Virus record (IMG/VR): IMGVR_UViG_3300034196_000153
DNA: 64,000 nucleotides
From: an uncultured virus (IMG/VR IMGVR_UViG_3300034196_000153)
Lineage: Duplodnaviria > Heunggongvirae > Uroviricota > Caudoviricetes
Reading direction: 5' to 3' (one strand)
The notes beneath the pieces are model-generated. The model had not been told where the DNA came from, ran no database searches, and saw nothing but the letters and a program-made list of their open reading frames with translations. A program made the translations under genes and the position numbers. Positions 10,756 to 55,531 of this stretch are shown piece by piece (the first letter of the stretch is position 1; each line of letters begins with the position of its first letter).

Positions 10756-12027
10756 ATGAAACGTAATTATAATATTCATCCATTGTTCAAAGATGACATT
10801 CAACACGCTAAAACATTATTGGCTAAAAAAGGCTATACACTTGATGTAGATCTTTTTACGACGCTTAATGAAAAAAGACTTTCATTGCTTCAAGAAGCAG
10901 AAAGCTATAAAAAAGAAATCAATACGCTCTCAAAGTCTACCCCACGAGACACAGACTTCATTCAAAATATTGCTCGCTCAAAAGAGATGAAAGCTAAACT
11001 TTTGTTGGTTGAACAAGAGTACGTTGTGGCTGAAGAACAATTCGTTGATTACTTCTGTGCTATCCCTAACTTTCCACATGTCAGTGTTCCAGAAGGTGTT
11101 GATGAGCAGGGTAACGTAGAAGTTAAACGTCATCTTGAACCCACTAAGTTTTCACATGATATTAAAGACCATGTGGCATTAGGTGACCGTAAACAGCAAC
11201 TGGATATTAAAGCAGGTGTTGCTCTTTCAGGTAGCCGTTTTATCGTGCTGCGTAATGACATTGCTAAATTGCACCGTGCCTTGATTCAATTTATGTTGGA
11301 CACTCATACCGATGACGGATATCAAGAACACTATGTTCCTTATATTGTGAATGATGACGCTTTGTATGGAACTGGTCAGTTGCCTAAGTTTCAAGAAGAC
11401 CTCTATCAGTTGAAAAACAAAGAGAATGCTTACTTGATCCCAACCGCAGAAGTCCCATTGACAAACTTGTTTGCGGGGCAATTCTTGCCAGAAGCTGACT
11501 TGCCTATTAATATCACTGCTCATACACCTTGCTTCCGTTCAGAAGCTGGCTCATACAGCAAGGATATTGTCGGTCTTATCCGTCAACATCAATTTGAGAA
11601 GGTCGAGCTTGTAAAGATTGTTAAAGCTGATGAATCTTATGTTGAACTTGAAAACATGCTTAATCAGTCAGAGAAGATTTTGCAGTTGCTTAACTTGCCT
11701 TATCGTGTCGTCGCTTTGTGTGGTGGTGATATGGGGTTCTCAGCCGCTAAAACTTATGACATTGAAGTCTGGGTTCCTAGCCAGAACACATATCGTGAGA
11801 TTTCTTCTGTTTCAAACTGTGAAGACTTCCAAGCTCGTAGAATGCTGGCTAAATACAAAACATCAACTGGTAATCATTACGTTCATACATTGAATGGTTC
11901 TGCGTTGGCGGTAGGTCGTTGCTTATTGGCTATCTTGGAAAACTTCCAAAATGAAGATGGATCTGTTAATGTTCCAGAAGTGCTTCAACCTTACATGAGA
12001 AATCAAACAAAAATTTTGGAGCTTTAA
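10756..12027 (+). CDS. serS: Seryl-tRNA synthetase
   Basis: N-terminal coiled coil; GTGQLPKF, LIPTAEVPL, FRSEAGS, GLIRQHQFEKVE, KTYDIEVW, EISSVSNC, HTLNGSALAVGR. Confidence 0.98.
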   Translation: MKRNYNIHPLFKDDIQHAKTLLAKKGYTLDVDLFTTLNEKRLSLLQEAESYKKEINTLSKSTPRDTDFIQNIARSKEMKAKLLLVEQEYVVAEEQFVDYFCAIPNFPHVSVPEGVDEQGNVEVKRHLEPTKFSHDIKDHVALGDRKQQLDIKAGVALSGSRFIVLRNDIAKLHRALIQFMLDTHTDDGYQEHYVPYIVNDDALYGTGQLPKFQEDLYQLKNKENAYLIPTAEVPLTNLFAGQFLPEADLPINITAHTPCFRSEAGSYSKDIVGLIRQHQFEKVELVKIVKADESYVELENMLNQSEKILQLLNLPYRVVALCGGDMGFSAAKTYDIEVWVPSQNTYREISSVSNCEDFQARRMLAKYKTSTGNHYVHTLNGSALAVGRCLLAILENFQNEDGSVNVPEVLQPYMRNQTKILEL

Positions 12028-25315: not shown

Positions 25316-25411
25316 ACTTCTCCGCTCTATGCTTCTGTTAGAGGCATTATCTATTTAACTAAAAAATCAGCTACACACAAACACAATTAAATTTTCGTGG
25401 AGAAAAATATT

Positions 25412-26671
25412 ATGAACGCATTTATTCAAGAACTCAAACAACGTGGCCTCGTTTCTCAGATGACAGACGAAAGCAAAATTTCAGACCTTATGGATAATGG
25501 TTTGTCTCTATACTGCGGATTTGACCCAACAGCAGAGTCTTTGCATGTGGGTAGTCTTTTGCCATTGATTACTATGCTTCGCTTTAAGAAAGCGGGCCAT
25601 ACTGTGTTCCCATTGATTGGTGGTGCTACCGGCATGATTGGTGACCCTAGCTTTAAAGCACAAGAACGTACTTTGAATGACGCGGAAACCGTTAATCGTT
25701 TCAAAGCAGGTATTGCTGGTCAAATCAAACATATTCTGGGTGATGTAGAACTTGTTGATAACCATGATTGGACTGTTAACCTTTCAGTCATTGATTTCCT
25801 TCGTGATGTGGGTAAGCATTTCTCTGTGAATGCTATGATGAGTAAAGATTCGGTACGTAGCCGCTTGGATCGTGATGATCAAGGTATTTCTTTTACTGAG
25901 TTCTCATACCAGCTCCTGCAGTCAATGGACTTCCATCACTTGATGAAAGAGAAAAACTGCCGTCTTCAATTGGGTGGTAGCGATCAGTGGGGTAACATCA
26001 CTGCTGGTATCGACCTTATCCATCGTAAAGAAGGTAATGATGTCGTCGCCACTGGCTTGACTATTCCATTGTTGACCAAAGCAGATGGCACGAAGTTTGG
26101 TAAAAGTGAAAGTGGTGCGGTTTGGTTGTCCTCAGAAATGACCAATCCTTTTGATTTCTTCCAGTTTTGGTTGAAAGTGGCGGATGCGGATATTCCGAAG
26201 TTCTTCAAAATGCTTTCTTTTAAGTCTATTGAAGAAATTGATGCTATCCTTGAAGCTGATAAAGAACGCACTAAACCGATGGCTCAACAGCTTTTGGCCG
26301 AGGAATTAACCGCTATTGTTCATGGTCAAGCAGCACTTGATTCTGTATTGCGTAACATCAAAGCTTTGTTTGATAACAACTTTGATAGCTTGCAAGAAGA
26401 TGATTTTGTCAATCTTGAAAAGAACGGTATGGTTGCTGTTATTCCTGAGACATTGAATGTGCTTGATTTGATGGTCGCTACTGGTTTGGCTAAGTCGAAA
26501 CGACAAGGCCGAGAGTTTATCCAGAGTGGTGCTGTTCAAGTAAACGGTAACAAGTTGGTAGTCAGCGAGGATGATATGAACGCTCTTGAAATTACAGATT
26601 TCAAGTTTGGTAAATTCGCTGTCTTTCAACGTGGCAAACGAGAGTTCAGATTGATTAAAAAGCCCGCCTAG
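25412..26671 (+). CDS. tyrS: Tyrosyl-tRNA synthetase
   Basis: YCGFDPTAESLHVG (HIGH-like), GGATGMIGDPS, EFSYQLLQ, QLGGSDQWGNI, KFGKS, C-terminal S4-like domain. Confidence 0.98.
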   Translation: MNAFIQELKQRGLVSQMTDESKISDLMDNGLSLYCGFDPTAESLHVGSLLPLITMLRFKKAGHTVFPLIGGATGMIGDPSFKAQERTLNDAETVNRFKAGIAGQIKHILGDVELVDNHDWTVNLSVIDFLRDVGKHFSVNAMMSKDSVRSRLDRDDQGISFTEFSYQLLQSMDFHHLMKEKNCRLQLGGSDQWGNITAGIDLIHRKEGNDVVATGLTIPLLTKADGTKFGKSESGAVWLSSEMTNPFDFFQFWLKVADADIPKFFKMLSFKSIEEIDAILEADKERTKPMAQQLLAEELTAIVHGQAALDSVLRNIKALFDNNFDSLQEDDFVNLEKNGMVAVIPETLNVLDLMVATGLAKSKRQGREFIQSGAVQVNGNKLVVSEDDMNALEITDFKFGKFAVFQRGKREFRLIKKPA

Positions 26672-54013: not shown

Positions 54014-54064
54014 ATGAAACCTACATTTGCTGTATCCTATTATTATTCATCATATTCTAGTTAA
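54014..54064 (+). CDS. Ser/Tyr-rich attenuator leader peptide MKPTFAVSYYYSSYSS
   Basis: GGAG RBS at 54001; last 9 codons are TCC TAT TAT TAT TCA TCA TAT TCT AGT. Confidence 0.85.
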   Translation: MKPTFAVSYYYSSYSS

Positions 54065-54153
54065 CTGACCAGAGTAGAGGTCAGTTATGGCCTCGAATTC
54101 TTGGATAGTAATTATCTTAGACCCTTTGAAGGCCACCTTCAGAGGGTTTTTTT
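54053..54153 (+). promoter_or_regulatory. Transcription attenuator (alternative hairpins plus terminator)
   Basis: Overlapping helices 54053-62/54067-76, 54062-70/54079-87, 54077-83/54088-94, 54088-97/54125-35, terminator 54121-32/54136-47 plus U-tract. Confidence 0.8.
54121..54153 (+). terminator. Rho-independent terminator (attenuator terminator)
   Basis: ACCCTTTGAAGG-CCA-CCTTCAGAGGGT-TTTTTT. Confidence 0.9.
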
Positions 54154-54193
54154 ATGTCCATAGTGGCAGGGTTAAGTTCAACCTAAAACAATG

Positions 54194-54243: not shown

Positions 54244-54272
54244 TTGACAAAGACGAAAGAAGTTGATAGAAT
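54244..54272 (+). promoter_or_regulatory. Strong sigma70 promoter for the tRNA array
   Basis: TTGACA-17 nt-TAGAAT, extended TG, AT-rich UP region. Confidence 0.8.
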
Positions 54273-54324
54273 GTTAAACATGAAGAGTTGAGAAGAAAAA
54301 CGAAAAACTCTTAGTAACACAAAT

Positions 54325-54412
54325 GGAAGATTGGTCGAGTGGCCGATGGCGTCAGTCTTGAAAACTGAAGGGTGTAACAGCTCCGTGAGTTCGAATCTCA
54401 CATCTTCCTCCA
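54325..54412 (+). tRNA. tRNA-Ser(UGA), copy 1 (U73 discriminator)
   Basis: GGAAGAT/ATCTTCC acceptor, TCAGT-CTTGAAA-ACTGA, long variable arm, TTCGAAT, CCA. Confidence 0.93.
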
Positions 54413-54434
54413 AATTTAGTTTCAAAAGTATCAT

Positions 54435-54518
54435 GGTTAGTTGGCAGAGTGGACGATTGCGGGGGACTGTAAATCCCTTCCGAAAGGCACGGTGGTTCGA
54501 ATCCATCACTAACCACCA
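54435..54518 (+). tRNA. tRNA-Tyr(GUA), copy 1
   Basis: GGTTAGT/ACTAACC, GGGGA-CTGTAAA-TCCCT, A73-CCA. Confidence 0.92.
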
Positions 54519-54540
54519 AATTAGTTGTAAACTGTTTTAT

Positions 54541-54624
54541 GGGAGTTTCGCATAGTGGCCGATTGCACGGGACTGTAAATCCTGCTCGAAAGACTCGGTG
54601 GTTCGAATCCATCAACTCCCACCA
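54541..54624 (+). tRNA. tRNA-Tyr(GUA), copy 2
   Basis: GGGAGTT/AACTCCC, CGGGA-CTGTAAA-TCCTG, A73-CCA. Confidence 0.92.
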
Positions 54625-54649
54625 AATTAGATGTAATAGTAAGAATTAT

Positions 54650-54739
54650 GGACGCCTTTCCTTGTCATCGCTCTGTAAAAGCGACGCCTTAATAAGACAG
54701 GTCGGTTGGCGTGAGGTTCGAATCCTTGGGCGTCCACCA
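54650..54739 (+). ncRNA. Atypical tRNA-Tyr(GUA)-like RNA lacking a D-arm, with an enlarged variable arm
   Basis: GGACGCC/GGCGTCC acceptor, TCGCT-CTGTAAA-AGCGA, TGAGG-TTCGAAT-CCTTG, ACCA; only 11 nt in place of the D-arm. Confidence 0.75.
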
Positions 54740-54760
54740 AATTAGTTGTAAACCGTATAT

Positions 54761-54848
54761 GGAAGCTTGGCCGAGTGGTTTAAGGCAACAGTCTTGAAAA
54801 CTGTCGAGTGTAACAGCTCCGTGAGTTCGAATCCCACAGCTTCCGCCA
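54761..54848 (+). tRNA. tRNA-Ser(UGA), copy 2
   Basis: GGAAGCT/AGCTTCC, ACAGT-CTTGAAA-ACTGT, G73-CCA; one T-stem mismatch. Confidence 0.92.
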
Positions 54849-54874
54849 AATTTAGATGTAACCTGTTTTATTAT

Positions 54875-54958
54875 GGGGGGTTCGCATAGTGGCCGATTGC
54901 ACGGGGCTGTAAACTCTGATCGAAAGACACGGTGGTTCGAATCCATCACCCCTCACCA
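54875..54958 (+). tRNA. tRNA-Tyr(GUA), copy 3
   Basis: GGGGGGT/ACCCCTC, CGGGG-CTGTAAA-CTCTG, A73-CCA. Confidence 0.9.
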
Positions 54959-54971
54959 AATTTAGATTTAT

Positions 54972-55024
54972 GGGAAGTATGTGGCTGTTGTTATGTCGTA
55001 ACAATGGTTAATCGCTACCCACCA
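54972..55024 (+). ncRNA. CCA-ended minihelix-like hairpin (tRNA remnant or mimic)
   Basis: GGGAAGT/GCTACCC acceptor-like stem plus 12 bp hairpin plus ACCA. Confidence 0.5.
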
Positions 55025-55028
55025 ACAT

Positions 55029-55116
55029 GGAAGCGTGGCCGAGCGGTTTAAGGCACTAGTCTTGAAAACTAGCGGATGTAACAGTCCCGTGAGTTCGAAT
55101 CTCACCGCTTCCGCCA
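55029..55116 (+). tRNA. tRNA-Ser(UGA), copy 3
   Basis: GGAAGCG/CGCTTCC, CTAGT-CTTGAAA-ACTAG, G73-CCA. Confidence 0.94.
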
Positions 55117-55132
55117 TCTTATAGAGGTGCTT

Positions 55133-55531
55133 ATGAATAAAGAGCAAGGTGACACATGTGAATCGTTTGCAACCTTTTATTATACATCACTAGGATGTAT
55201 TGTCAGTAAGCCATTAACTCATTCCCCTTATTACGACTTAATTGTTGACACCGATGGGGTATTAAAGAAGGTCGAGTGCAAGAGTTCTAGGCATAAACCT
55301 AATGAAAAATCTTATTTAGTAGAATTAGCTACAAAGGGTGGTAATCAATCTTGGAATAAAGTTGTCAAAAAAATTGACGCTAAAAAAGTTGATGAAATCT
55401 TTATTTTAGACGGTGATGGTAATTATTATGTTTATAACTCTATAGATCTTGATGGTCGAAGAACCGTAAACGTCAATAACACTTTGAAAAGTTTCATGGG
55501 TAATCAACAAAAGCTCACTTCAAAAGTTTAA
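55133..55531 (+). CDS. PD-(D/E)XK endonuclease (group I intron/homing-endonuclease-associated type)
   Basis: G...E.......G..VSKP......YDLIVD......VECKS; GAGGTG RBS right after the last tRNA. Confidence 0.8.
   Translation: MNKEQGDTCESFATFYYTSLGCIVSKPLTHSPYYDLIVDTDGVLKKVECKSSRHKPNEKSYLVELATKGGNQSWNKVVKKIDAKKVDEIFILDGDGNYYVYNSIDLDGRRTVNVNNTLKSFMGNQQKLTSKV

Follow-up and report, generated by a model that had tools for sequence, protein, structure and literature searches.

A tRNA-Tyr-type gene with a predicted pseudoknotted core in a phage tRNA array, and its unannotated homologues in other phages

Can a gene that begins and ends like a tRNA and carries a tyrosine anticodon still be a tRNA when its D stem-loop is missing, and what would then hold its core together? 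This question is raised by element X, a 90-nucleotide (nt) unit of a tRNA array in the uncultured virus IMGVR_UViG_3300034196_000153 (IMG/VR), of which the whole analyzed stretch of 64,000 nt is referred to below as the window. A first-pass annotation, made from the letters of the sequence, described the unit as a D-armless tRNA-Tyr-like RNA with an oversized variable arm and proposed that a pairing of the variable loop with the segment at the D-arm site substitutes for the D-arm. The comparisons presented here indicate that X is a tRNA variant of new structure or, at the minimum, a selected RNA of tRNA descent, and that its family is widespread and unannotated in phages. The following features were distinguished in X:

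54650-54739, plus strand: element X, tRNA-Tyr-type gene with a predicted pseudoknotted core, 90 nt including the encoded CCA (read from the sequence)
54650-54656, plus strand: 5′ strand of the acceptor stem, paired with 54729-54735 (7/7 Watson-Crick pairs, G1-C72 first)
54657-54667, plus strand: 11-nt connector at the D-arm site, including the 5′ strand of helix H_D (54660-54666, one bulged T)
54667, plus strand: invariant A preceding the anticodon stem, the last base of the connector
54668-54684, plus strand: anticodon arm, 5-base-pair (bp) stem with 5/5 pairs and 7-nt loop, GTA at 54675-54677
54685-54688, plus strand: 5′ strand of the variable stem, H_V, paired with 54708-54711
54689-54695, plus strand: A-rich strand TTAATAA; extended by the following G it reads TTAATAAG, a motif that does not vary among GUA members
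54696-54701, plus strand: 3′ strand of H_D, GACAGG, paired with 54660-54666 and crossing H_V
54702-54707, plus strand: loop TCGGTT with a GG dinucleotide, candidate equivalent of G18-G19
54708-54711, plus strand: 3′ strand of H_V, closing the variable stem
54712-54728, plus strand: T-arm TGAGG/TTCGAAT/CCTTG, 5 pairs including U.G and G.U wobbles
54729-54739, plus strand: 3′ strand of the acceptor stem, discriminator A and encoded CCA (read from the sequence)

X shares with canonical class II tRNA-Tyr of bacteria an acceptor stem with G1-C72, A73 and an encoded CCA, the anticodon arm, the T-arm with its T-loop, and an arm at the variable position. Its 7-nt anticodon loop, C-U-GUA-A-A, contains U33, the GUA anticodon and a purine (A37) at position 37. 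Canonical tRNA-Tyr also has a D stem-loop and a variable region of approximately 12-13 nt, as in the neighbouring Tyr copies, whereas the connector of X comprises only 11 nt that form no hairpin, and its variable region extends over 27 nt closed by CGCC/GGCG. The stems, the 11-nt D replacement and the 27-nt variable region of the first description were all recovered when every pair was checked, as was the complementarity between the connector sequence CCTTGTC and GACAGG of the variable loop, which leaves one T bulged.

Homologues of X, introduced below, form a GUA and a UCU subfamily named after their anticodons, and 17 distinct sequences were examined (6 GUA and 11 UCU). Pairs were counted on separate MAFFT alignments of six sequences per subfamily, designated A5 (GUA) and A6 (UCU), because gaps fell inconsistently when the two subfamilies were aligned together to a covariance model. 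In A5, 98.8% of the cells were paired and 13 pairs were changed on both sides, while slid controls did not exceed 47.5% paired; the corresponding values for A6 were 95.5%, 9 pairs and 51.0%. None of 500 shuffles reached the observed result in either alignment. The D-arm-substituting pairing proposed earlier covaries: H_D is 100% paired in both subfamilies, with double changes at 3 of its 6 pairs in the GUA and at 2 of its 5 pairs in the UCU members. H_V, composed of four pairs, is 100% paired in the GUA subfamily with two pairs doubly changed (CGCC/GGCG, CGTG/CACG, CGTC/GACG) and 95.8% paired in the UCU subfamily, again with two. Within the GUA subfamily, double compensatory changes were also found at 6/7 pairs of the acceptor stem and 2/5 pairs of the anticodon stem, and all cells of the T-arm (100%) are paired.

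Several further properties concern the placement of these helices. Eight Watson-Crick versions of H_D with exact complements were distinguished (CCTGTC, CCTCAC, CCCCAC, CCCAC, CCAGC, CCCTC, CCCGC and CCGAC), the five further ones coming from segmented IMG/VR members. Judged without an alignment, H_D lies at a constant place in 12 members, with one base between it and the anticodon stem and at a distance of 7-8 bases into the variable loop. In 11 of these 12, the 5-6-bp H_D is the best Watson-Crick helix that connector and loop can form, while the window copy, with its bulged T, gives 4 bp at this place. C17 and A18 are invariant in all 12 aligned members, the loop CTGTAAA is invariant in 6/6 GUA members, and so is TTAATAAG (A5 columns 40-47), the UCU members having an 8-nt A-rich equivalent. 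The loop following H_D is 5-7 nt long and contains GG in 16/17 distinct members, extended to GGA in 11/11 UCU sequences. Covariance model R1 scores X with 106.8 bits; a model trained solely on the six GUA members gives the UCU members 36-54 bits and canonical tRNAs at most 27 bits. The pairing between connector and variable loop is thus supported by covariation, and since H_D crosses H_V, the core of X is predicted to be a pseudoknot.

The homologues were identified in several steps. With X as blastn query, 4 records of Pseudomonas phages (Lyrsu01-03 and Rembedalsseter) gave matches that carry no annotation, and walking on from these led to phage SCYZ1 and the marine phage HSd1; the layout of X is repeated in all of them. 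The Pseudomonas-phage members have a GUA anticodon and immediately precede the gene of the small terminase; a tRNA-Pro comes after the element in SCYZ1 and the Lyrsu phages. Near-consensus promoters (TTGACC-17-TATACT, TTGACA-17-TATAAT and TTGACA-17-TATACT) start 48-64 nt upstream of three Pseudomonas-phage elements. The HSd1 member carries a UCU anticodon, and matches to this form came from 303 phage records, including 295 of Vibrio phages and one of a Salmonella phage; no tRNA annotation of the element was present among the matches listed of these 303 records. The first-pass annotation had treated the element as unique and Tyr-specific, which did not hold, as the fold belongs to a family that also occurs with a UCU (Arg-type) anticodon. 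The homologues that it had suggested searching for do exist, and they keep the five helices.

In IMG/VR, a fixed-length pattern gave 23 matches, 8 of which are members, all of the UCU type; fixed-length patterns were used because a variable-gap scan returned one false match and missed the known member L166. One GUA-type member resides on a 437-kilobase (kb) IMG/VR contig rated 98% complete. An exact 21-nt pattern of X yielded 0 matches in IMG/VR, where the anticodon stem of the relative is another one, and with an anticodon-free GUA-type pattern the sole member among the best 80 of 109 matches was the already known contig. A search of a plasmid collection gave ordinary tRNA matches only. HSd1 (L318) and Lyrsu03 (L319) have in common genes for a gamma-glutamyl cyclotransferase, an ATP-grasp enzyme, a glutamine amidotransferase and an amidoligase; given this common gene set, the UCU and GUA anticodons may differ inside what is possibly one phage lineage.

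The two subfamilies differ in the way in which the acceptor/T branch is best drawn. An 8/4 drawing pairs G8 with the C that ends the T-stem in 6/6 UCU members, while a 7/5 drawing places A.C there in 6/6, so the former fits better. In the GUA subfamily, including X, position 8 (U or C) and U63 both stand opposite G79, and the branch can be drawn either way. According to the sets given in passages of PMC9976931, the identity elements are A73, G34, U35 and G1-C72 for bacterial tyrosine tRNAs, and A20, C35, U36 and A/G73 for arginine tRNAs. All six GUA members have G1-C72, A73, G34 and U35, and all 11 UCU members have C35, U36, A/G73 and the GGA after H_D. Both subfamilies thus retain the identity elements of their cognate synthetases. 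The GGA of the UCU members looks like G18-G19-A20, its A lying where A20 would be. AGA and AGG account for 308 of the 667 Arg codons of HSd1, a usage that fits a decoding role of its UCU member.

Standard gene finders pass over the element. ARAGORN made no call on X in its standard, intron or mitochondrial mode at default thresholds; at an 80% threshold the mitochondrial mode gave a partial call overlapping X, one of 26 mostly spurious calls. No Rfam match over X was listed at E ≤ 10 (RF00005 and tRNA-Sec included), and a search of genome G001 with RF00005 found 27 tRNAs, X not among them. None of the nine phage members tested was called by ARAGORN, and their Rfam matches were sub-threshold only (tRNA-Sec at 24-30 bits against a gathering cut-off of 47 in six members; tRNA at 26.3 bits against 29). 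The minimum free energy of X is -28.2 kcal/mol (z = -1.22), equalled or bettered by 22 of 200 shuffles, so it is conservation and covariation in the homologues, and not folding energy, that set X beyond chance. In the clear RNA library X15, contigs extend over only the first ~26 nt of X, a cover that is uninformative on expression either way; runs X5 and X6 are only presumably RNA.

The array in which X is embedded, and the genes associated with it, are organized as follows:

54325-55116, plus strand: tRNA array with X as the fourth unit (ARAGORN, Rfam, alignment)
54244-54272, plus strand: sigma-70-like promoter TTGACA-17-TAGAAT before the array (regular-expression scan; kept in relative L004)
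54325-54412, plus strand: Ser(tga), array unit 1
54435-54518, plus strand: Tyr(gta), array unit 2
54541-54624, plus strand: Tyr, array unit 3
54761-54848, plus strand: Ser, the unit after X
54875-54958, plus strand: Tyr, third canonical copy (Tyr3)
54972-55024, plus strand: element Y, 53 nt, between Tyr3 and Ser3
55029-55116, plus strand: Ser, last array unit
55133-55531 (alternative GTG start 55127), plus strand: PD-(D/E)XK protein of family PF11645, 10-16 nt past the last tRNA
25397-26671, plus strand: bacterial-type tyrosyl-tRNA synthetase (TyrRS) gene, Pfam tRNA-synt_1b 8.3e-76 plus SYY C-terminal/S4 domain; possible charging enzyme
10756-12027: seryl-tRNA synthetase (SerRS) gene

X and the six canonical tRNAs of the array have in common the 5′ context TTATGG and the 3′ spacer CCA-AATTAG. 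Two metagenome relatives, L004 and L005, carry the same array, and their flanking genes share 66-75% DNA identity with the window. X is identical to the window copy at 90/90 positions in L004 and 89/90 in L005. For the canonical genes the identities in L004 and L005, respectively, are 100% and 99% (Ser1), 100% and 100% (Ser2), 92% and 92% (Ser3), 90% and 90% (Tyr1), 72% and 76% (Tyr2), and 82% and 82% (Tyr3), and for the PD-(D/E)XK gene 72% and 71%. The canonical tRNA-Tyr genes hence diverge fast (72-90%) in comparison with the tRNA-Ser genes and X (92-100%), and the anticodon stem of Tyr1 exists in three different, fully compensated versions in the window, L004 and L005. The L005 copy of X differs solely in having lost the bulged T of the connector, a loss that makes H_D a perfect 6-bp helix; this T is also missing in L166, whose anticodon stem additionally departs from that of X by two double compensatory changes. 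Simple decay, against which the first-pass annotation had argued, is indeed contradicted by the 100% and 99% identity of X amid flanks of about 70%, and by the homologues in unrelated phages.

In three of the four sequencing runs (X2, X5, X7 and X15), contigs span X without a single difference. Strains vary in how the array units are ordered, X being found after Tyr3 in one run and after Ser2 in another, and a joint skipping 54628-54741 was seen in three runs (region 54300-55140). The stretch is present in runs labelled as peat, wastewater, factory and food metagenomes. The L004 and L005 contigs comprise 1,859,102 and 520,353 bases (contigs with relatives range from 0.5 to 1.86 Mb), and another relative is the 437-kb contig, rated a 98% complete virus and containing 27 canonical tRNAs. 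No relative of the locus was found among GTDB species genomes. The window itself has 32% GC, Shine-Dalgarno sites and promoters of the TGnTATAAT type, and the majority of its open reading frames (ORFs) have no match in Pfam or PHROGs. As the 437-kb contig contains the same array units, the window is most likely part of a huge phage.

The window pairs its own SerRS and TyrRS genes with a Ser/Tyr tRNA array. In relatives (L005 5095-5287; L184 879-1745) the Ser anticodons change from UGA to AGA or CGA, and an extra Ser(GCU) gene is present. A TyrRS query retrieved three distant IMG/VR loci, none with a match to the X family. Relatives searched for with a 357-amino-acid neighbour protein were not found, and tblastn of the upstream 282-amino-acid ORF against phages gave no match. 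Element Y combines a tRNA-like 5′ context and ACCA with an acceptor-like stem of 6 pairs, broken at an A.A mismatch, and a single long hairpin; it was found in L004, L005 and G001, and its hairpin shows two compensatory double changes.

Upstream of the array, an ORF of 16 codons (54014-54064) contains a Tyr/Ser run, its peptide ending in SYYYSSYSS, and is followed by conserved hairpins and then by a terminator-like hairpin with a T-run at ~54120-54153 (region 54014-54156). The peptide is identical in L004, and the Y/S run is kept in L005 and the 437-kb contig with a different N-terminus. The region gives a sub-threshold Rfam match to His_leader (32.2 bits against 49). By these features, 54014-54156 looks like a leader-peptide attenuator that would sense charged tRNA-Tyr/Ser ahead of the array.

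The sole PDB match of the PD-(D/E)XK protein encoded past the last tRNA is 2ost (E = 6e-11), which we take to be I-Ssp6803I, the homing endonuclease of a tRNA-fMet intron. Passages of PMC1995217 connect I-Ssp6803I with the tRNA-fMet intron and its anticodon region. The 55133-55531 product is, by homology, a probable homing endonuclease of the tRNA array, of the free-standing kind. In the 437-kb relative, all that is left of this gene is a stop-containing remnant of 25 residues. Distant PF11645 homologues (33-44% identity) occur in metagenome-assembled genomes of Solirubrobacterales/Thermoleophilia (L084-L163), and a search of GTDB genomes with the PD-(D/E)XK profile revealed actinobacterial homologues of at most 44% identity and no close relative. 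In 9/9 metagenome loci scanned (L011, L016, L017, L021, L023, L047, L057, L061 and L069), a tRNA-Tyr gene starts ~90-130 nt downstream of the PF11645 homologue; the family is recurrently linked with tRNA-Tyr genes.

What, then, is X? That it is a selected, structured tRNA-derived RNA is very probable, and we favour, at about an even chance, the reading that it is a working tyrosine-type tRNA gene with a rewired core. The D stem-loop is gone, and the connector and the enlarged loop of the variable arm form the 6-bp H_D, a D-stem supplied in trans, with the GG after H_D possibly standing in for G18-G19. According to the proposed mechanism, X would be transcribed with the array and trimmed as its neighbours are. 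It would then probably be charged by TyrRS, either that of the host or the phage's own enzyme (25397-26671), and the charged molecule would read UAY codons, a decoding role to which its features incline us slightly. The surfaces read by nucleases, i.e. the variable loop and the D-arm, would be absent or buried in X, so that translation could persist when ordinary tRNA-Tyr is cut. By analogy with known systems, such evasion is a possible, though doubtful, selective reason for X.

The charged, decoding tRNA is favoured because the identity elements are kept, not all of which would be needed by a decoy or a scar. Further support comes from the strong promoters upstream of the phage members, from the codon usage of HSd1 and from an engineered D-armless tRNA-His that HisRS, EF-Tu and the ribosome of E. 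coli all tolerate, as described in parts of PMC11551756. On the side of nuclease evasion, passages of PMC13096335 describe the cleavage of the tRNA-Tyr variable loop by Septu and retron-Eco7, and cite from the authors' own earlier work the escape of T5 tRNA-Tyr by means of a distinctive variable loop. It is this published cleavage that lends plausibility to the function put forward in the first-pass annotation, a tRNA resistant to nucleases or a decoy for one that attacks tRNA-Tyr. The amplification of tRNA-Tyr genes by a homing endonuclease, treated in passages of PMC13096335 and PMC11555353, has a parallel in the window, where three fast-evolving canonical Tyr genes and X are followed by a homing-endonuclease homologue.

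Several observations weigh against a working tRNA with a rewired core. The folding energy of X is by itself within chance, and the alignments A5 and A6 are small (6 sequences per subfamily) and composed of related sequences. The Rembedalsseter member lacks the GG, so the analogy to G18-G19 is not universal. Between the window and L004/L005, identity is 91-100% over X, the downstream Ser2 and both spacers flanking X, and part of the identity of X could come from a recent exchange of this block and not from selection on X alone. The phage already possesses three canonical tRNA-Tyr genes, and a fourth decoder is not obviously needed. The UCU subfamily means that the fold is not bound to tyrosine, which weakens an account based on tRNA-Tyr nucleases alone. 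Finally, some irregular tRNAs are charged and yet unused in translation, as reported in passages of Mukai et al. (PMC5389517).

Irregular tRNAs of the latter kind would also suit a non-decoding tRNA mimic, i.e. a decoy or sponge for a tRNA-Tyr-directed nuclease or another tRNA-binding defence protein, which, charged or uncharged, would shield the real tRNA-Tyr pool. The three canonical tRNA-Tyr genes beside X are compatible with this role, as are their rapid change, with compensated anticodon stems, next to an invariant X, and the strong promoters before the Pseudomonas-phage members. However, a decoy would need neither the full synthetase identity set nor the 12-bp acceptor/T branch, both of which are conserved, and the heavy use of AGA/AGG by the phages of UCU members fits real decoding; we consider a decoy unlikely. 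It is still less probable that X is a structured RNA of another role which reuses tRNA ends for processing or stability, for example as a regulator of the Ser/Tyr module, a tyrosine donor to a non-ribosomal acceptor or as the partner of the neighbouring PD-(D/E)XK endonuclease. The invariance of TTAATAAG in the GUA members goes beyond purely structural need, and the array has a second tRNA-ended non-tRNA (Y, 54972-55024), an upstream leader peptide of Tyr/Ser codons with a terminator, and an endonuclease homologue behind it. Against this stand the anticodon loop and identity elements conserved in both subfamilies, and the small phages, in which the element occurs although endonuclease, synthetases and Y are all missing.

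A decaying tRNA-Tyr pseudogene or recombination scar, hitch-hiking in close relatives, would account for the rejection of X by ARAGORN and Rfam, for its unexceptional folding energy and for its position inside a block conserved together with Ser2 and the spacers, in arrays that rearrange. It would not account for 17 distinct homologues in unrelated phages whose five helices are kept through compensatory changes, or for the two double anticodon-stem changes between L166 and X; on these comparisons, a pseudogene is very unlikely.

X resembles several known RNAs without coinciding with any of those compared. Its nearest counterparts in nature, the animal D-armless mitochondrial tRNAs such as mt-tRNA-Ser(AGY) and nematode tRNA-Ser, likewise have no D stem-loop and a short connector between acceptor and anticodon stems, and are still charged and active in translation, as described in passages of PMC7609411. 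These RNAs are shrunken, have no long variable arm or compensating helix and need adapted mitochondrial factors, whereas X, at 90 nt, is longer than a normal tRNA, has its connector paired to the 27-nt variable region and belongs to phages of bacteria. The allo-/(8/4) tRNAs treated in parts of PMC5389517 resemble the X family in their long variable arm, their presence in phages and metagenomes and their being missed by standard finders, and the UCU subfamily is like (8/4) tRNAs in that the 8/4 acceptor/T branch is its best drawing. They keep, however, a D stem-loop with a long stem and a tetraloop, as given in the same parts, while a D hairpin is missing from X, and for the GUA subfamily a 7/5 drawing is possible; the word "pseudoknot" has 0 occurrences in the main text of PMC5389517.

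The tRNA-Tyr genes by which phages T5 and T6 counter retron-Eco7 and Septu are also phage-borne and strongly promoted, with the variable loop as the nuclease site (passages of PMC11555353 and PMC13096335), and they are amplified beside a homing endonuclease, much as three canonical Tyr genes and X precede an endonuclease homologue in the window. The T5/T6 tRNAs are canonical cloverleaves and their endonuclease is the GIY-YIG enzyme SegB, whereas that of the window is of the PD-(D/E)XK type. The engineered "mini HisT" (parts of PMC11551756) is D-armless like X but man-made and has no compensating pseudoknot. In the tyrosine tRNA-like structure of plant viruses, the pseudoknot lies in the acceptor arm at the 3′ end of an RNA genome, while X is a gene of a DNA-phage array with an ordinary 7-bp acceptor stem and its predicted pseudoknot in the core. 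The fold was not described in the literature searched, most subscription journals and supplements lying outside it; the irregular tRNAs treated in the supplements of PMC5389517 may be relevant here.

It is possible, though less likely than not, that phages carry a general alternative tRNA architecture, with GUA and UCU versions, that may be charged and competent for the bacterial ribosome and may have evolved against nucleases acting on the D-arm or variable loop. If X is indeed such a molecule, it would be the first natural non-cloverleaf tRNA in the bacterial world. For tRNA structural biology, its fold would represent a new way to build the core of the L-shape, and for genetic-code engineers a natural scaffold, possibly orthogonal in its core. 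In phage defence, X would be a specific candidate for an RNA that evades tRNA-cutting immunity through its structure, and the fold recurs in hundreds of phage genomes, where it goes uncalled by ARAGORN and at Rfam gathering cut-offs.

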